This document shows, in pieces, positions 614 to 7,126 of a stretch of DNA of 7,126 nt. The DNA lies in assembly GCA_049414405.1 (NCBI GenBank), contig JBMSAQ010000017.1, positions 1-7,126 on the forward strand, given 5' to 3'. The translations under genes were made by a program, and so were the position numbers. Under the pieces are notes generated by a model that was given only the letters and a program-made list of their open reading frames with translations, ran no database searches and was not told the origin of the DNA. Position 1 is the first letter of the stretch; each line of letters begins with the position of its first letter. The stretch comes from Candidatus Nanopusillus sp. (GTDB lineage Archaea > Nanobdellota > Nanobdellia > Nanobdellales > Nanobdellaceae).

Positions 614-1282
614 TTAACTTGCCAATGACTTTAATAGACCTTCTACTTTAGAAGCAAATGCTTGTAGTTGATCTGAAGAAGCACTGATACCTTCGGTTAC
701 GATCATTATAAATACGTTTTGTCCTACTTCAATATACATTCCATAACCGAAAATTTTTGAATAACCCCAAATATTATTACCTCTCATACCTGTTGATGCT
801 CCATAAGAGCCAGATGTTAATTCTCTACGTGCTTGTTCATATTTCTCTTGAGCCGGATTTGGAACAGAATTCCAGTAATATCCAGCTAGTCCAATTTTTC
901 CTTCATTATTATTAGAAAGAGCTACAAATATTCCTACTTTTGGGGAAACATTACTCTGAGTATCTGTAAAGAAGGTTTTCCAAAAAAAGTACTCATCATC
1001 ATTTTCCCCAATTGTTATTGTAGTTCCATTCATAACTATTATATCATATCTCCCCCCACCTTTATGAATCATATATCCTGTTGAATTTTCAACAACATAC
1101 CATGATCCTCCATAAAAGTTTTTTGCAAGAGAAACCATTTCATTGACTGTATTTTTAAATTTGTTAGCACCACCCATACTCTGACTCAAATAATATACTA
1201 CAAATATGCCAATACTTACAACAGCAACAATTATTATCAACATAATTGAAAAACCAATACTTCTTATTTTACTTCTAATCAT
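614..1282 (-). CDS. Surface/secreted protein with N-terminal anchor or class III-like signal peptide, paralog B
   Basis: 222-aa ORF from the track. The N-terminus MIRSKIRS/IGFSIMLIIIVAVVSIGIFVVYY is a short basic leader followed by a hydrophobic helix. The rest aligns with paralog A. Three N-glycosylation sequons sit at aligned positions in both copies (NST/NET, NGT/NGT, NVS/NIS). No enzyme motif recognised. Confidence 0.82.
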   Translation of the reverse strand: MIRSKIRSIGFSIMLIIIVAVVSIGIFVVYYLSQSMGGANKFKNTVNEMVSLAKNFYGGSWYVVENSTGYMIHKGGGRYDIIVMNGTTITIGENDDEYFFWKTFFTDTQSNVSPKVGIFVALSNNNEGKIGLAGYYWNSVPNPAQEKYEQARRELTSGSYGASTGMRGNNIWGYSKIFGYGMYIEVGQNVFIMIVTEGISASSDQLQAFASKVEGLLKSLAS

Positions 1283-1409: not shown

Positions 1410-1824
1410 ATGGATATCTATCAAAAAGAAATTAAAATAAAAACAAAAAGTCCATATGATTTTATAGATATAACTGATATGGTTAATGAGGTATTAAAGG
1501 AATCGGGAATAAAAAATGGTATATTATCATTATTTTCATTACATAATACTGCATGTATAATAATACAAGAAAGTGATGAAACAATATTTAAAGATATTGA
1601 AGAATTTTTTAATAGAATATTACCACTACACATAAAATATTATCATAATTATGAGGGAAATATTAATGCAACCGCACATATAAAAACAAATTTATTATCA
1701 AAATCTTTATGTATATCAATAAAAGATGGAAAACTTTTGTTAGGAACATAGCAAAGGATAATATTTTTAGAATTATTTTGAACCAACAGAAAGAAGAATA
1801 TTCGTAACAATAATTGGGGAATAA
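1410..1824 (+). pseudogene. yjbQ: YjbQ/UPF0047 family (secondary thiamine-phosphate synthase-like) gene, disrupted by a nonsense codon and a +1 frameshift
   Basis: The ORF 1410..1751 carries family hallmarks: HNTACIIIQESDE, NATAHIKTNLLSKSL, DGKLLLGT. It stops at TAG 1749-1751, exactly where the family motif LGTWQ has Trp (TGG). Reading on gives QRIIFLELF, then TGA at 1779-1781. Removing one T from the T4 run at 1776-1779 restores ELFEPTERRIFVTIIGE-TAA (stop 1822-1824), the expected family C-terminus. Repaired length is 137 aa. Confidence 0.8.
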
Positions 1825-1826
1825 AA

Positions 1827-2288
1827 TTAAATAATATATAGATTCTTCTTATTTTTACTTTCTTTATAATTGTTGAAAAATAAACTATAACTAAATTTAC
1901 TGTCTAAGAATTTATTAATAGCTTTTAATATTTGTTTTCTTTTAATATTAGTTAATATCCTATTATTAATAAAATAAAATTCTTTAAAATACTCTCTTCC
2001 TAAATTATAATAAAATTCATAAAACCCATCTTCGTCAATATTATCTACAAATTCTTCAACTTTATTCAAACTCCCAAAAATTTTAATCAATATTTTTTCA
2101 TAATGTAAATATCTCAATATGTCCTTTACTTTTATCCTTTTACATTTGTATATATCAAGATTATTACATTCTTCTACAAACCCTTTTGCAAAATAGTATA
2201 CTGCTATTACAAATGGTAAGTCTGTATACAGAAAGTAATTTATATAATCTAATTTCTTTTTATTATCCCTTCCGATATACTTTATCAA
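1827..2288 (-). CDS. Hypothetical protein, no family recognised; start uncertain (TTG at 2288, or a frameshifted gene starting at ATG 2364)
   Basis: 153-codon ORF from the track. Its first codon is actually TTG (2288..2286). It is Lys/Tyr/Phe/Asn-rich with no motif I can assign. A 33-codon ORF (MKKFNSLDKILTDNIVSKRLFLKDIFDKVYRKG*, ATG 2364..2362) overlaps its 5' end in another frame. Confidence 0.55.
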   Translation of the reverse strand: MIKYIGRDNKKKLDYINYFLYTDLPFVIAVYYFAKGFVEECNNLDIYKCKRIKVKDILRYLHYEKILIKIFGSLNKVEEFVDNIDEDGFYEFYYNLGREYFKEFYFINNRILTNIKRKQILKAINKFLDSKFSYSLFFNNYKESKNKKNLYII

Positions 2289-2417: not shown

Positions 2418-3122
2418 ATGACTGAAAAACTTTTTTGGCAAGATCAATATTTAAAAGAATTTGAAGGAAGAGTTATTGAAATTAGAGGAAAAGAAGTTAT
2501 TTTAGATAGAACTGCCTTTTATGCAAGAAGCGGAGGTCAACCAAGAGATACTGGGGAAATAAATGGAATAAAAGTGATAGATATATATTATGATGATAAG
2601 GGAAATATTGTACATTTATTAGAAAAAGAGCCAAATTTTAAAGTTGGTGATATTGTAAAAGGAAAAATAAACTGGGAAAGAAGATATAAATTAATGAGGT
2701 TACATACAGCCTTACATATATTATCTGCAGTATTGAATAACATGTTTGGTAATATAAAAATTACTGGAAATCAGATATATGAAGATAAAGCAAGAATAGA
2801 TTTTGATTTAGATAAGTTAGATGACGAATTAGTAAAGAAAATTGAAGAAAAGGCAAATGAAATTGTTGATAAAGATTTGCCTGTATACGCAAAATTTATA
2901 AATAAAGAAGAACTTGAAAAAATGCCCCAATTAAAAAGATTAATGGATGAAAAAAGATATGAAAAATATGGTGTTTTAAGAATAATTAGTATTGGAGATA
3001 TTGATGTACAATTGGATGGAGGAACGCATGTAAAATCTACAAAAGAAGTTGGAAAAATAAAAATTATTGGAAAAGAAAATAAAGGTAAAAATAATAAAAG
3101 GCTGATTATTACAATTGAGTAG
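2418..3122 (+). CDS. alaX: AlaX-type alanyl-tRNA trans-editing protein (AlaX-M-like; Ala/Thr-tRNA synthetase second additional domain)
   Basis: 234 aa. It has an N-terminal AlaRS-like barrel segment (LDRTAFYARSGGQPRDTGEI), the HxxxH motif (LHTALH, H96/H100), and the downstream GGTHVKSTKEVG motif typical of AlaRS/AlaX editing domains. The usual Cys before GGTH is Asp here (D200, GAT 3015-3017). Confidence 0.85.
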   Translation: MTEKLFWQDQYLKEFEGRVIEIRGKEVILDRTAFYARSGGQPRDTGEINGIKVIDIYYDDKGNIVHLLEKEPNFKVGDIVKGKINWERRYKLMRLHTALHILSAVLNNMFGNIKITGNQIYEDKARIDFDLDKLDDELVKKIEEKANEIVDKDLPVYAKFINKEELEKMPQLKRLMDEKRYEKYGVLRIISIGDIDVQLDGGTHVKSTKEVGKIKIIGKENKGKNNKRLIITIE

Positions 3123-3130
3123 CCTTAATA

Positions 3131-4175
3131 TCATACTACTATCATAAGACCAATTATTCCATTTTCTAGTCTATATTTTTTATTAGATTCTTCATTTAAT
3201 CTTTTTAAATAATCTTCTTCATATAGTGCAAATCTTATAAAGTCGTAATTTTTATATCTTAGTTGCATTATATTATATAATCTACCTAGATTAATAGCTT
3301 GTTTTAATATACTTCCAGATCTCTTTTCTTCAACATATATTCCCTAAATTTATAGTATATTCTCCTCCTCTTGTTATAATTATCATCTTATACTTCCCAA
3401 CTTCCTTTTTTTTCAATTTCTCAAATGACTTCTTTAATGGTTCACGTCACCAGTAGTTTGCAAATAATATATTGTAAGAAGTTTACCCAATAAACTAGAT
3501 ATTGCTTCTTTCAATTTTTCATCTTCTGGTATGGGACTTATAATTCCATCTAAACCATCCATTGGCAATTATTATTGATGATAACAATTAAAAGTTTTTT
3601 ATTAATCAGAAATTGTTGAAAAATTAATATATTTGTTGTTTTAATTCATAAAATTCCCATCTTATTTCTTTTCTAAAATTATTTATTAACTCTGTTGATT
3701 TCATTTTTCTTCTTTAGGCATATATTTTTTTCTTAATACACCCATAAATAATGCATATAACCTAGAATTAATTATTTTTGGAAATAAACTATATTTTATA
3801 TCTTCCTTTAATTCTTCTAATATCTCTTTAACTTCCTCTGATCTATTCAACCCCTTATTTCCTATATCTTTAACTGATCTTTATCAATTACCAAAATTTT
3901 TCCATCACTAAATGTTATCCTTCCTCTAAATATTCTATCATAAAATTGTCAGGATTCTAAAACATCCGGTTCCAATACTCTTAATCTATTAAATACAAAT
4001 CTTCTAATCTAATCAGTAGATAATTTTCCAAATTTTTCTGTTTTTATACAATCTTTAATTCTTTTACAATTTACTTTGCAACTTCTTCAGATGCATTCGC
4101 ATTAATTAATGAATTATATACATTATCCTCTAAAAATTCTTCCTCCTTACCAGATCTTTTTATTATTTTTACCAT
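3131..4175 (-). pseudogene. Decayed gene remnant beginning with an ATP-cone domain; distal part unassignable
   Basis: There is no ORF in the track across ~1.05 kb, but the minus strand is purine-rich like the coding strands elsewhere. From ATG 4175..4173: MVKIIKRSGKEEEFLEDNVYNSLINANASEEVAK-TAA(4073..4071). After a frame change: KVNCKRIKDCIKTEKFGKLSTD-TAG(4011..4009)-IRRFVFNRLRVLEPDVLES-TGA(3951..3949)-QFYDRIFRGRITFSDGKILVIDKDQLKI-TAG(3864..3862). This matches the ATP-cone pattern (vIKRdGxxExF...A...eevaxxv...istxeIxxxVxxxL). Further open fragments in shifting frames are SVKDIGNKGLNRSEEVKEILEELKEDIK...KEEK-TGA(3703..3701), a fragment ending at TAA 3626..3624, and a terminal 70-codon stretch ending at TGA 3133..3131. 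Confidence 0.6.
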
Positions 4176-4214
4176 AAATTTTTATTCAAATGTTGATATT
4201 AATAAAATAATATC

Positions 4215-4247
4215 GTATACAAAAATTTATATACATATTTTGAATAC
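4215..4247. promoter_or_regulatory. Imperfect inverted repeat bracketing the vapB TATA box (candidate antitoxin operator)
   Basis: GTATACAAAA (4215-4224) and TTTTGAATAC (4238-4247) are complementary at 9 of 10 positions. The 13-nt spacer contains TTTATATA (4226-4233). Confidence 0.35.
4226..4233 (+). promoter_or_regulatory. TATA box (TTTATATA) for the vapBC operon; predicts a leaderless mRNA
   Basis: Consensus octamer centred 26.5 nt upstream of ATG 4256. Confidence 0.55.
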
Positions 4248-4255
4248 AGTATATT

Positions 4256-4486
4256 ATGAGTAAAACGGATGTTATAAGTATAAGAATAGATAAAAATTTA
4301 AAGGAAAAAGCAAAAGAATTAGGAATAAATATAAAAGATGTCGTAGAAAAAGCTTTGAAAGAAGAAATAGAAAAAAGAAAAAGAGAAAAAATAAAAAAAT
4401 TAGCCGAAAAATTAAGCGAATTAATGAAAAATGTTACTCCAGAAGAATTCACAAGATTAATTAAAGAAACAAGATATGAAAGATAA
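4256..4486 (+). CDS. vapB: Type II antitoxin, ribbon-helix-helix (VapB-like)
   Basis: 76 aa. The N-terminus ISIRIDKNLKEKAKELGINIKDVVEKALKEEI looks like an RHH beta-strand plus two helices, followed by a charged C-terminal tail. It overlaps the downstream PIN gene by 11 nt (4476-4486), a typical toxin-antitoxin coupling. Confidence 0.72.
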   Translation: MSKTDVISIRIDKNLKEKAKELGINIKDVVEKALKEEIEKRKREKIKKLAEKLSELMKNVTPEEFTRLIKETRYER

Positions 4487-4901
4487 TAATTTTTTATTTG
4501 ATGCTTCTGCACTATATAAACTTCTAACTGTTTATAGAGATTATACTGACAAACTAGATTATAATTATATTTATATATTAGATCTTACTTTTTATGAAAT
4601 TGGAAATGCTATTTGGAAAGATTATTATATATTTAAGAGAATTAACAATCTTATAGAAACTTCTGAAGTTATTTATGGAATACTAAAAGAACTCAATGTA
4701 ATTGAAAATTTATCTTCATCATTTATTGAAATAATAAAAATTGCGATAGAAAAAAATTTAACATATTATGATGCTTCATATGTTTATGCTTCAAAAAATT
4801 TTGGACTTATTTTAGTATCTGAAGATAAAGATTTAATAGAAAAAGGTAATGCAATTTCAGTAAAAGAATTTATAGAAAAATATTTAAAAAATAATAATTA
4901 A
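4476..4901 (+). CDS. vapC: PIN-domain ribonuclease toxin (VapC)
   Basis: 141 aa with the PIN acidic residues in the expected order: FLFDASAL (Asp near the N-terminus), LTFYEIGNAIW (Glu), YYDASYVYAS (Asp), LVSEDKDL (Asp). It sits immediately downstream of, and overlaps, the small RHH gene. Confidence 0.85.
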   Translation: MKDNNFLFDASALYKLLTVYRDYTDKLDYNYIYILDLTFYEIGNAIWKDYYIFKRINNLIETSEVIYGILKELNVIENLSSSFIEIIKIAIEKNLTYYDASYVYASKNFGLILVSEDKDLIEKGNAISVKEFIEKYLKNNN

Positions 4902-4931: not shown

Positions 4932-5981
4932 ATGGGTTTAGCAGAGATAAGAGAACTAATAAAACCTATAATAAAGGAAGTTGATTTTTCATATTTATCT
5001 GGAAAAGTTGTTGCATTAGATGCATTTAATGCTTTATATCAATTTTTAGCCGCAATAAGACAACCTGATGGTACACCTTTGAAAGATTCTAAAGGAAGAG
5101 TTACTTCACACTTATCAGGTTTATTTTATAGAACAAAGAATTTAATTGAATATGGAATAAAAGTAATTTATATATTTGATGGCAAACATCCGGAATTTAA
5201 AAAAAGAGAACGGGAATTAAGAGAGGAACAAAGAAAAAAGATGGGAGAAAAATATAAAAGAGCAATTGAAATGGGTATAAAAGGGGATTTAAAAAAATAT
5301 GCAGAATTTACATCAAAATTGGAATTTAATATGATAGAGGAATCAAAGGAGTTGTTAAAAGTGATGGGGGTTCCATATGTACAAGCACCTTCTGAAGGAG
5401 AAGCACAGGCTGCATATCTAGTTAAAAAGGGAATTGCAGATTATGTTGGATCACAAGATTATGATTCCTTATTATTTGGAGGATTGAGAGTTGCAAGAAA
5501 TTTAACAATAAGTGGAAAAAGAAAAGTGAGAGGTGTAGAAGTTGAAATAAATCCAGAAATTATTGAATTAAATGACATATTAAATCATTTAAAGTTAGAT
5601 TATAAAAAGTTAATATGGTTTGCTTTGATTATTGGAACTGATTATAATCCAGACGGAATTCCGGGAATAGGGGTAAAAACTGCATACGAACTTGTAAAAA
5701 ATAGTGATGACCCTGAAAGATTGTTTAAATATGTTGGATGGGAAAAATATTATAAAGAAATTTCTTGGAAAGAGCTTGAAGAATTCTTTGAAGATCCACC
5801 GGTAACTGATATAAATAAAGAAGATATAAAGTTTGGAGAAGTTGATGAAGAAAAAATAAGAAAAATATTAATTGATGAACATGATTTTTCAGAAGATAGA
5901 GTAAATAAGGCTATTGAAGAACTAAAGAACGCATATAAAAAAGGTAGTCAAAAAAATATATTATCTTTTTTTGGAAAATAA
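4932..5981 (+). CDS. fen: Flap endonuclease 1 (FEN-1, XPG/Rad2 family)
   Basis: 349 aa. It has the N-domain (VALDAFNALYQFL, TSHLSGLFYRT, IYIFDG), the I-domain (APSEGEAQAAYL, VGSQDYDSLLFG), the H3TH (GTDYNPDGIPGIGVKTAYELV), and a C-terminal PCNA-interacting PIP box QKNILSFF (Q-x-x-I-x-x-F-F). Confidence 0.95.
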   Translation: MGLAEIRELIKPIIKEVDFSYLSGKVVALDAFNALYQFLAAIRQPDGTPLKDSKGRVTSHLSGLFYRTKNLIEYGIKVIYIFDGKHPEFKKRERELREEQRKKMGEKYKRAIEMGIKGDLKKYAEFTSKLEFNMIEESKELLKVMGVPYVQAPSEGEAQAAYLVKKGIADYVGSQDYDSLLFGGLRVARNLTISGKRKVRGVEVEINPEIIELNDILNHLKLDYKKLIWFALIIGTDYNPDGIPGIGVKTAYELVKNSDDPERLFKYVGWEKYYKEISWKELEEFFEDPPVTDINKEDIKFGEVDEEKIRKILIDEHDFSEDRVNKAIEELKNAYKKGSQKNILSFFGK

Positions 5982-6032
5982 TCAGAATGGGTAAAATTCA
6001 TCACCTTTCAGTATCTTTTTTTCATCATCTAT
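5978..6032 (-). ncRNA. C/D box sRNA (2'-O-methylation guide RNA)
   Basis: The minus strand reads 5'-AUAG|AUGAUGA|AAAAAAGAUA|CUGA|AAG|GUGAUGA|AUUUUACCCAUU|CUGA|UUAU-3'. C box 6028..6022, D' box 6011..6008, C' box 6004..5998, D box 5985..5982. All four boxes match consensus (RUGAUGA / CUGA). The D guide is the canonical 12 nt and the D' guide is 10 nt. A 4-bp terminal stem forms between 6032-6029 and 5981-5978 (one G-U pair). Confidence 0.75.
6016..6022 (+). terminator. Oligo-T tract (T7) downstream of fen
   Basis: A T7 run on the + strand lies 35 nt after the fen stop. Archaeal RNAP terminates at oligo-T. The same bases are the A-run of the sRNA D' guide on the other strand. Confidence 0.3.
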
Positions 6033-7126
6033 ATGCTTTACTAATATATTCCTCAAAACATCTATAAGTATTAAATATTGGACTTATTGTTCTTATTGCA
6101 TTCAATGATATATCTATATATTTATCATAATTATTTCTGTAAATGTTTAATACATAGTCTAATTTATTATAGAAATCTTCTACATCTTTATCATTTGTAT
6201 CTATATTTATATCATAATTATTTTCTCCAAAGAACCATCCATTATAATCATCAATTATTATTTCTAATGGGGAACCATCTCTTGAAAATAATGTAGGAGT
6301 ACCATTCATTGCAGCCCTCATCCAAGAAGTACCTGAAGCTTCAAATGGTGGTCTTGGAATATGTAAAAATAAATCCGTACCTGCTAAAATTGTTCTTTCT
6401 TGTTCATATCCTCTATTTAATATTAATCCAATTGGAGTATTCAATGTTGACATAATATCTAAAATCCATCTAATTGTATTTTTTACAAATTCATCTTTTG
6501 GATGAAACGTACCAGATAATAAAAATTGTGTTTTATATTTTTTATCTAATTCTTCAAATTTTTCCAGTCTCCATAATAACATATGAAATCTTTTATATTC
6601 GGTTAATCTCCTTTTTACAGAAATTAATATTCTATCTTCTCTAAATTCTTTGTTTGAATATGAATTTACATTTATATAATCTATTAAATCTTTTTTTACA
6701 ACATTTTTTACCTTTATGAATTCTTTCCTATTTATGGATTGTGCATATGCAAACTTTCCAGGTTCATTTCTCCATCCATGTAGATATGTATCATATAAAT
6801 ATTCAATCTTTTTATTTACCCACCTTAAATGATATACACCATTTGTTACATAATCTAACTTTTTATTATATACACTTTCAGTAATTATTTTATGTTTACA
6901 TGATACAGCATTTACATATCCGGATAATTCAAATAATATTTTTGTTAATGATAATTTATTTGGAGATAGATTTCTTATTTCGCCAGGAATATCATAATAT
7001 TTTTCTACTAGATCATAATCAAATGAATCATGACCTGCAATAATTGAATGAGTAGTAAATACAATCTTTTCTTTTACCTTATTTATATCCCTATATCTTT
7101 TATATAATTCTATTGCTAAAAAACCT
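6025..7126 (-). CDS. glgP: Alpha-glucan (glycogen/maltodextrin) phosphorylase, GT35 family, 5'-partial (N-terminus beyond window end); PLP-lysine replaced by Arg
   Basis: The track lists only 6025..6582, but the frame stays open upstream to the window edge. My translation from 7125: GFLAIELYKRYRDINKVKEKIVFTTHSIIAGHDSFDYDLVEKYYDIPGEIRNLSPNKLSLTKILFELSGYVNAVSCKHKIITESVYNKKLDYVTNGVYHLRWVNKKIEYLYDTYLHGWRNEPGKFAYAQSINRKEFIKVKNVVKKDLIDYINVNSYSNKEFREDRILISVKRRLTEYKRFHMLLW... Family motifs present: FTTHS..AGHD, TNGV.H..W, RRLTEYKR, and the phosphorylase signature EASGTSWMRAAMN (6342..6304). Confidence 0.85.
   Translation of the reverse strand, partial: GFLAIELYKRYRDINKVKEKIVFTTHSIIAGHDSFDYDLVEKYYDIPGEIRNLSPNKLSLTKILFELSGYVNAVSCKHKIITESVYNKKLDYVTNGVYHLRWVNKKIEYLYDTYLHGWRNEPGKFAYAQSINRKEFIKVKNVVKKDLIDYINVNSYSNKEFREDRILISVKRRLTEYKRFHMLLWRLEKFEELDKKYKTQFLLSGTFHPKDEFVKNTIRWILDIMSTLNTPIGLILNRGYEQERTILAGTDLFLHIPRPPFEASGTSWMRAAMNGTPTLFSRDGSPLEIIIDDYNGWFFGENNYDINIDTNDKDVEDFYNKLDYVLNIYRNNYDKYIDISLNAIRTISPIFNTYRCFEEYISKAYR

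Follow-up and report, generated by a model that had tools for sequence, protein, structure and literature searches.

Does a glycogen phosphorylase need its pyridoxal phosphate (PLP)? This question is raised by positions 1 to 7,126 of contig JBMSAQ010000017.1 from Candidatus Nanopusillus sp. (GCA_049414405.1), a stretch of 7,126 nucleotides of archaeal DNA with 24.6% G+C, which was analyzed as a whole and is called the window below. At one end it encodes an alpha-glucan phosphorylase homolog of the short archaeal type (TIGR02094, family GT35), in which an arginine stands where the lysine that carries PLP is expected. Before 2024, covalent PLP was thought to be necessary for every phosphorylase of the family, and one archaeal exception has since been shown. 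We found that the arginine marks a monophyletic clade, designated W-M-R or R-type after its signature. By analogy with that exception, we consider it probable that the members of this clade are active, expressed alpha-glucan phosphorylases that work without PLP.

Arginine occupies the position of the cofactor lysine

The phosphorylases of family GT35 are recognized by the signature E-A-[SC]-G-x-[GS]-x-M-K-x(2)-[LM]-N (PROSITE PS00102), whose lysine forms the Schiff base with PLP. The window does not match this pattern, because it has an arginine at the lysine position (Table 1). The open reading frame (ORF) leaves the window at position 7125, and its N-terminal ~167 codons lie outside, as full-length orthologs have 533 amino acids. 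The encoded fragment matched TIGR02094 with an E value of 6.9e-47 (160.5 bits) and PF00343 with an E value of 3.6e-17, so the signature motif is not a chance match. It is identical to the NCBI protein fragment P0284, and 93% identical to Nps_03060 (AMD30011.1) of Candidatus Nanopusillus acidilobi, which falls into the same 90%-identity cluster. Residue numbers in this work follow P0001, an ortholog that is 93% identical to the window protein.

In a HMMER alignment of P0001 with the Segatella copri phosphorylase (PDB 9l6i), Arg437 was placed opposite chain residue 609, and Lys609 is the residue that carries PLP in the S. copri enzyme (PMC12912991). Arg437 thus occupies the Schiff-base position, and no alternative alignment is needed. 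An earlier reading of the window, made from the sequence alone (the sequence-only reading), had assigned an arginine (AGG at 6318..6316) to this position, and both the translation and the alignment to S. copri Lys609 bear it out. The only other invariant lysines of the clade are K176, K244 and K345. A relocated lysine taking over the role of the lost one was rejected: a lysine or arginine at the K244 column, and K345, are found in Lys-type relatives too, and the clade therefore has no replacement lysine of its own.

The AlphaFold2 model of P0001 had a predicted local distance difference test (pLDDT) score of 93.3 and a predicted template modeling (pTM) score of 0.92. Glycogen, maltodextrin and starch phosphorylases made up all of its top 50 Foldseek matches in the PDB, with S. 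copri 9l6i (TMq 0.89) in first place, and the predicted structure conforms to the two-domain GT-B phosphorylase fold. The S. copri phosphorylase was also the best match by sequence (E value of 1.3e-34). Against the TIGR02094 cut-off of 191.7 bits, the full-length R-type proteins P0001, P0004, P0018 and P0017 scored 273.7, 283.3, 290.7 and 296.4 bits, respectively.

The substitution is clade-wide and under selection

A first homolog search returned 21 nearest clusters, down to 42% identity, all of which (21/21) read EA[SC]GTSW[MI]R, while all more distant matches read ..G-M-K. A profile search with the clade alignment then gave 44 clusters, all with E-A-[SC]-G-T-S-W-[MI]-R. In this search the scores dropped from 740 to 537 bits, the latter for the partial R-type fragment P0010, and then to less than 490 bits for the first Lys-bearing proteins. 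The Arg-type set consists of 20 full-length sequences and 24 further members, making 44 protein clusters, and the R-type signature is confined to these among the sequences examined. The aldimine-forming residue is absent from the Schiff-base position in 44/44 clade members. Since arginine is unable to form an aldimine, covalent PLP is excluded.

Arg437 was present in every ortholog of independent assemblies, three complete genomes included. Its codon is AGG in the window, in Nanobdella, in YN1 and in the metagenome contigs L003 and L004, AGA in three metagenome-assembled genomes (MAGs) of Nanopusillus and in one Aenigmatarchaeota MAG, and CGC in another Aenigmatarchaeota MAG. This variation indicates that selection acts on the amino acid. 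Pairwise ratios of nonsynonymous to synonymous substitution rates (dN/dS) between the phosphorylase gene and three orthologs ranged from 0.10 to 0.24, with 0.10 to the nearest ortholog, and were close to those of the adjacent FEN1 gene (0.07-0.14). The ORF is intact, and its Lys-to-Arg change is common to the 44 clusters, so that none of the marks of a pseudogene was found. The sequence-only reading had asked whether the change was lineage-wide or unique, and had judged the rest of the protein to be intact and under constraint. The change proved to be lineage-wide, over 44 clusters in three archaeal phyla, and the constraint is confirmed by the dN/dS values that it had called for. The Lys-to-Arg substitution is therefore real, old, clade-wide and under selection.

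Coupled changes at the cofactor site and conservation of the substrate site

To describe the active site, we compared the 20 full-length Arg-type sequences with 232 Lys-type homologs. Position 437 is arginine in 20/20 of the former and lysine in 232/232 of the latter. Three other positions change together with it. The tyrosine of the E-[ND]-Y motif (position 405), found in 231/232 Lys-type sequences, is replaced by arginine (13 sequences) or asparagine (7) in the R-type. Position 422 is asparagine in 222/232 Lys-type and histidine in 20/20 R-type sequences. Position 338, an alanine in 220/232 Lys-type sequences, is arginine (13) or lysine (7) in the R-type. The 24 further R-type members have the same states at positions 437, 405, 422 (histidine in 24/24) and 338, and the R-type signature correlates perfectly with [KR]338, [RN]405 and H422.

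In the rabbit muscle phosphorylase, we take the tyrosine of E-N-Y648 to pack on the pyridoxal ring and K680 to be the Schiff-base lysine. From the loss of this near-universal tyrosine, we infer that the pocket for the pyridoxal ring is gone from the R-type proteins.

The residues that handle the substrate are retained. In the HMMER alignment, R339, R340, K345 and H193 lie opposite residues 507, 508, 513 and 316 of the S. copri enzyme, where H316, R507, R508 and K513 contact the substrate or product (PMC12912991). Each of the residues H193, N239, N262, R339, R340, K345, E429, G432, T433 and S434 is kept in 20/20 R-type sequences. The GGLG motif, which falls beyond the window, is present in full-length orthologs and invariant in the 20-sequence clade alignment. 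By alignment, the niche of the PLP 5'-phosphate (R339, T433 and S434) is also kept, while the E-[ND]-Y tyrosine is lost.

Distribution and phylogenetic position

The clade, one of hot-spring archaea, includes Candidatus Nanopusillus, 'Nanobsidianus stetteri', Nanobdella aerobiophila (complete genome AP019769), Nanoclepta minutus and Nanoarchaeota archaeon YN1 (complete genome AP031373), as well as Candidatus Aenigmatarchaeota and, unexpectedly, Thermofilaceae (Thermoproteota). In the Thermofilaceae MAG (L086), the R-type gene is located at 10001-11653 of a 1.0-Mb contig, among RuBisCO, GH35 and GH3 genes, a neighborhood that fits a free-living heterotroph. Its presence there hints at a transfer between free-living hyperthermophilic Thermoproteota and DPANN symbionts.

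In neighbor-joining trees, which are distance trees without support values and in which the branching within the clade should be read with caution, the Arg clade was monophyletic, with Thermofilaceae, Nanobdellota and Aenigmatarchaeota-like subclades. Its sister is a small W-M-K group from Altiarchaeota MAGs (P0163, P0179, P0199 and P0215). These sequences keep Lys437, Tyr405 and Ala338, and share with the R-type Trp435, the loss of the W-W pair at positions 452-453 and the loss of the lysine of the G-K-A-H-P motif. The three shared features must then predate the Lys-to-Arg change and are no sign of cofactor loss. From its sequences, the W-M-K group may represent the PLP-dependent state that directly preceded the Lys-to-Arg switch. 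The Arg clade and its Lys-bearing sister thus offer a natural before-and-after pair in which the need for the cofactor can be studied.

This comparison also settled the status of two further changes. The sequence-only reading had reported, with less certainty, that a second conserved lysine was lost upstream of the signature. Thr373 does align with the lysine of G-K-A-H-P, and this part stands. As evidence for cofactor loss it was rejected, since the lysine, present in 220/232 Lys-bearing homologs, is missing in 12 that keep Lys437, among them all 4 W-M-K sister sequences. Trp435, considered as a filler of the PLP pocket, was rejected as diagnostic, because it occurs in the 4 Lys-bearing sisters and co-varies with the loss of the W-W pair.

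Other Lys-less homologs were found in metagenomes (P0129, P0173, P0195 and P0227, one of them labeled 'archaeon'), with cysteine or glycine in place of the lysine. They keep Tyr405, Asn422 and the W-W pair, that is, an otherwise intact cofactor pocket, which indicates that the lysine has been lost several times and in different ways.

Comparison with other lysine-less phosphorylases

In Methanococcales, phosphorylases have a threonine or serine at the lysine position (Gonzalez-Ordenes et al., bioRxiv 10.1101/2024.09.29.615707; FEBS J 2025, doi 10.1111/febs.70182). The recombinant M. maripaludis enzyme, in which the lysine is a threonine, phosphorolyses glycogen and is free of PLP by absorbance, fluorescence, a cyanohydrin assay and mass spectrometry (doi 10.1111/febs.70182). 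Its authors propose that the conserved 5'-phosphate niche accommodates a second orthophosphate and that bulky residues fill the pyridoxal pocket (doi 10.1111/febs.70182).

The M. maripaludis type and the R-type are both short (~520-550 amino acids) archaeal GT35 proteins in which the lysine of EASGTxMK is replaced, and both keep the GGLG motif, the substrate-phosphate residues and the niche of the PLP 5'-phosphate. By this analogy, they likely share a working principle, namely phosphorolysis without bound PLP. They differ in the residues involved: the Methanococcales have threonine or serine, whereas in the R-type the arginine is accompanied by Arg/Asn in place of Tyr405, His in place of Asn422 and Lys/Arg in place of Ala338. 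The pyridoxal pocket of the M. maripaludis enzyme is said to be filled by Phe26; in R-type proteins no counterpart of Phe26 was found, and the GGLGxL segment is unchanged. Activity and PLP content were measured for the M. maripaludis enzyme, whereas the R-type is known here by its sequence.

Lys-less members of 'GP1 clade VIII' (~550 amino acids) in Bacteroidota, Akkermansia and Gastranaerophilales have threonine, glycine or alanine instead of the lysine (Nat Commun 2026, PMC13324651). They resemble the R-type in belonging to the same broad subfamily, in their length of ~550 amino acids, in the absence of the Schiff-base lysine and in having been recognized by sequence alone, and differ from it by their Thr/Gly/Ala replacements and their bacterial hosts. 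The S. copri phosphorylase, whose substrate residues H316, R507, R508 and K513 are all conserved in the R-type, differs by PLP on Lys609 and by extra N- and C-terminal domains (852 amino acids). The window protein has an arginine at the Lys609 position and lacks the E-[ND]-Y tyrosine.

Neither arginine nor DPANN archaea nor Thermofilaceae are mentioned in the papers on the Methanococcales enzymes and on GP1 clade VIII (doi 10.1111/febs.70182, PMC13324651). We found no literature report of an Arg variant, or of a characterized Thermofilum or DPANN phosphorylase, in a search whose coverage left out most subscription journals, and the Arg clade appears to be unreported. It would add to the known exception 44 clusters from three archaeal phyla, some of them from the cultivated systems of Nanopusillus, Nanobdella and YN1. 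Its novelty lies in a different replacement, arginine, and in its own set of coupled active-site changes.

No threonine or serine was found at the lysine position among the 400 homologs collected, including the best 150 representatives of the R-clade profile search. Taken with a sister group that keeps the lysine, this makes the Arg clade look like an independent loss. Set against the published description of the Methanococcales enzymes, the sequences suggest an origin independent of that type.

Gene neighborhood and expression

The order FEN1, phosphorylase and class II (glycyl) tRNA synthetase, with convergent genes, is conserved from Nanopusillus to Nanobdella (L001, L003 and L004). Besides N. 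acidilobi (Nps_03055/03060, with the order extending to Nps_03065), the FEN1/phosphorylase arrangement was observed in Nanobdella, on one contig of Nanopusillus and on one YN1-like contig. Nps_03060, flanked by the FEN1 and glycyl-tRNA synthetase genes, carries the same R-type signature. In the published proteome of N. acidilobi, this protein was detected as 'Glucan phosphorylase' with abundance rank 93.

In this family, the FEN1-linked phosphorylase gene is not clustered with the other glycogen genes, unlike that of the Aenigmatarchaeota-like locus L084. There, the R-type gene directly adjoins GH57, GT5/GT4 glycogen-synthase-like and GDE_C debranching-enzyme genes. In another locus (L088), GH15, GH57 and GT5 genes lie at most 10 kb from the R-type gene. 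In N. acidilobi the same trio is encoded at a different place of the genome (Nps_00360, Nps_00365 and Nps_00370, of which Nps_00365 is synthase-like). Because a separate synthase gene is present in the same clusters, we argue that the R-type protein is degradative rather than a second synthase.

YN1 and an Aenigmarchaeota MAG have been described as lacking glucokinase, and the authors of the Aenigmarchaeota study let glycogen enter glycolysis through phosphorylase and phosphoglucomutase. Published genome descriptions of these archaea list the gene as a conventional phosphorylase. More generally, metabolic reconstructions of DPANN archaea routinely count it as the sole route from glycogen to glycolysis, with the altered cofactor site unremarked.

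Proposed phosphorolysis without PLP

The sequence-only reading had left three options for the window protein: a catalytically dead pseudoenzyme, an early-stage pseudogene or a PLP-independent variant. The last is now the best supported, by the precedent of M. maripaludis, the loss of the pocket tyrosine and the retention of the substrate residues. A dead pseudoenzyme fits poorly, and the pseudogene is discarded.

In the mechanism that we propose, orthophosphate bound at the R339/R340/K345 site would attack the terminal glucosyl residue of glycogen and yield glucose-1-phosphate. A non-covalent, dissociable anion, probably a second orthophosphate, would take over the proton-shuttle role of the PLP 5'-phosphate. 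This anion would sit in the retained 5'-phosphate niche, at the N-terminus of the G-T-S helix and near R339 (R339/T433/S434), and could be held by the newly acquired Arg437 together with neighboring basic residues. The assignment of the anion to this role follows from the M. maripaludis analogy and from the retention of the R339/T433/S434 niche. In these reduced genomes, several of them without glucokinase, phosphorolysis would thus feed stored glycogen into glycolysis through phosphoglucomutase.

Several points weigh against such a PLP-free phosphorylase. Its activity is argued from sequence and by analogy, and arginine is chemically unlike threonine, serine, glycine or alanine, so that it could in principle hold PLP or another phosphorylated ligand non-covalently. 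The spatial roles given to positions 338, 405 and 422 are likewise drawn from the alignment to rabbit E-N-Y648/K680 and from the structure of the rabbit enzyme. The TIGR02094 scores of the R-type are far below those of the Lys-type (~280 versus 507 bits), which makes some functional drift possible. Finally, PLP is used elsewhere in these organisms: N. acidilobi encodes and expresses SufS, and two genes for class I/II aminotransferases, which are PLP enzymes, lie within 6 kb of the R-type gene in the locus L085 (4190-5185 and 12342-13706). As the organisms use PLP, cofactor scarcity is no demonstrated driver of the change. The idea that the organism has no PLP at all was rejected on the same grounds, namely the expressed SufS of N. 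acidilobi and the aminotransferase genes flanking the R-type gene in L085.

Alternative explanations

One alternative is that the R-type proteins are inactive pseudoenzymes, which would keep the fold and bind glucan or a sugar phosphate as a sensor, a regulator or a scaffold of the glycogen particle, with no cleavage in the absence of the PLP acid/base catalyst. According to the literature, all classical phosphorylases need the PLP 5'-phosphate, and in the R-type four cofactor-site residues have changed together and the match to TIGR02094 is much weaker than in the Lys-type. A protein that only binds, however, need not keep H193, R339, R340, K345, E429 and G432-S434, which are retained in 20/20 sequences from three phyla, down to ~42% identity, and the M. 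maripaludis enzyme is active despite its lost lysine. Moreover, no second, Lys-bearing phosphorylase of these taxa was present among the homologs listed, and a dead enzyme would leave glycogen without a phosphorolytic exit in the genomes that lack glucokinase. We therefore regard a pseudoenzyme as unlikely.

It is distinctly unlikely that PLP, or pyridoxal plus phosphate, is still used and held non-covalently by Arg437 and the other new basic residues. As discussed in the M. maripaludis paper, phosphorylase chemistry does not depend on the aldimine bond itself, and non-covalent binding of PLP is known from another enzyme whose lysine has been replaced. The residues of the 5'-phosphate niche are kept, and the cofactor would be available in organisms that possess PLP enzymes. 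The tyrosine of E-[ND]-Y speaks against this possibility: found in 231/232 Lys-bearing homologs and replaced by arginine or asparagine in every R-type protein, it points to a lost ring pocket. The Lys-to-Cys/Gly variants P0129, P0173, P0195 and P0227 keep this tyrosine, unlike the R-type. In addition, retention of a non-covalent cofactor would presumably be weak at 70-85 °C.

A more radical version of the PLP-free hypothesis, which we hold with little confidence, would make the W-M-R clade a third, independent and mechanistically distinct type of PLP-free GT35 enzyme, in which Arg437, Arg/Asn405, His422 and Lys/Arg338 form a new anion or nucleotide site. If so, a dissociable cofactor, either free phosphate or pyrophosphate, could be clamped in this site, or the site could enable the use of a donor that contains a diphosphate. 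The clade would in that case serve as a natural model of the interconversion of phosphorylases and nucleoside diphosphate (NDP)-sugar glycosyltransferases, and the Thermofilaceae and two DPANN phyla would record a gene exchange between hyperthermophilic hosts and their symbionts.

Changed chemistry appears very unlikely. It would have the vacated pocket bind a nucleotide diphosphate or pyrophosphate, and the protein act as an NDP-glucose glucan synthase or another glycosyltransferase, like the proposed ancestor of GT35. This idea draws on the proposal in the literature that, in a proto-GT35 enzyme, a nucleoside monophosphate gave way to PLP, on the gain of as many as three basic side chains close to the site and on weak Pfam and NCBIfam matches to GT1/GT5 families. 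The GT5 matches are far under the threshold, with 37.4, 27.8 and 28.4 bits for P0001, P0018 and P0017 against a TIGR02095 cut-off of 328.45 bits, and Lys-type relatives give similarly weak matches to the glycogen synthases (GlgA family). The clade nests inside Lys-bearing phosphorylases and is thus derived rather than ancestral. A second synthase would also be redundant beside the GT5/GT4 synthase-like genes of L084, L088 and N. acidilobi (Nps_00365), and the presence of these separate genes disfavors the R-type protein as the glycogen synthase itself.

A sequencing error (a true codon AAG, one transition from AGG) or a recent decay, suggested by a neighboring gene with stops and frameshifts on the same contig, has a negligible chance of explaining the arginine: it is fixed in the 44 clusters and in every ortholog of independent assemblies under the synonymous codons AGG, AGA and CGC, the ORF is intact with a dN/dS of 0.10 to its nearest ortholog, and the N. 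acidilobi protein was detected by proteomics, all of which refutes the early-stage pseudogene.

Other features of the window

The sites of the phosphorylase gene and the remaining genes of the window are located in Table 1. Scans for tRNA genes and Rfam families gave no match in the window.

Table 1. Coordinates of the phosphorylase gene, its active-site codons and the other features of the window.
Feature	Position	Strand	Remarks
Alpha-glucan phosphorylase homolog (GT35, TIGR02094 type)	6025..7125	-	C-terminal 366 codons and TGA stop (6027..6025)
Signature E-A-S-G-T-S-W-M-R-A-A-M-N	6342..6304	-	Arg replaces the cofactor Lys
Arg437, codon AGG	6316..6318	-	PLP Schiff-base Lys position; aligns with S. 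copri Lys609
Trp435, codon TGG	6322..6324	-	Replaces Gly of ..GTSGMK; co-varies with loss of the W-W pair
Ser-Pro at 452-453	6273..6268	-	W-W pair in other homologs
Thr373, codon ACG	6508..6510	-	In S-G-T-F-H-P; Lys position of G-K-A-H-P
Arg405, codon AGA	6412..6414	-	Replaces Tyr of E-[ND]-Y
His422, codon CAT	6361..6363	-	Replaces Asn of W-L-N-x-P, seven residues before the signature Glu
Lys338, codon AAA	6613..6615	-	Additional basic residue, directly preceding the conserved R-R of the phosphate site
R339-R340-L-T-E-Y-K345	6592..6612	-	Retained substrate-phosphate site (S. copri R507, R508, K513); kept in 20/20 R-type sequences
His193, codon CAT	7048..7050	-	Retained substrate-binding His (S. 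copri H316), T-T-H motif
FEN1 flap endonuclease	4932..5981	+	TIGR03674, 413.9 bits; convergent neighbor of the phosphorylase gene; conserved synteny marker rather than a functional part
PIN-domain protein	4476-4901	+	PF01850, E value of 2.7e-4
76-aa ORF	4256-4486	+	Overlaps the start of the PIN-domain gene; ortholog in L003 is a weak CcdA match
Decayed copy of a 190-aa ATP-cone-like gene	3630-4175	-	tblastn: four pieces in three minus-strand frames, 52-88% identity, at least 4 in-frame stops
AlaXM, alanyl-tRNA editing protein	2418-3122	+	
153-aa ORF	1827-2288	-	No Pfam match
YjbQ-family protein	1410-1751	+	
222-aa ORF	614-1282	-	No Pfam match; hydrophobic N-terminal segment

The 76-amino acid ORF and the PIN-domain gene look like a VapBC-type toxin-antitoxin pair. 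A 108-amino acid ORF on the opposite strand (4186-4512, minus strand) is a low-complexity antisense artefact of this VapBC-like pair.

The decayed ATP-cone-like gene at 3630-4175 is intact in a Candidatus Nanopusillus MAG (L006, 4229-4801). The copy in the window is a genuine pseudogene or else reflects an error-rich part of the contig, and its state contrasts with that of the intact phosphorylase gene on the same contig.

From its sequence, the product of the 222-amino acid ORF may be a membrane or secreted protein.

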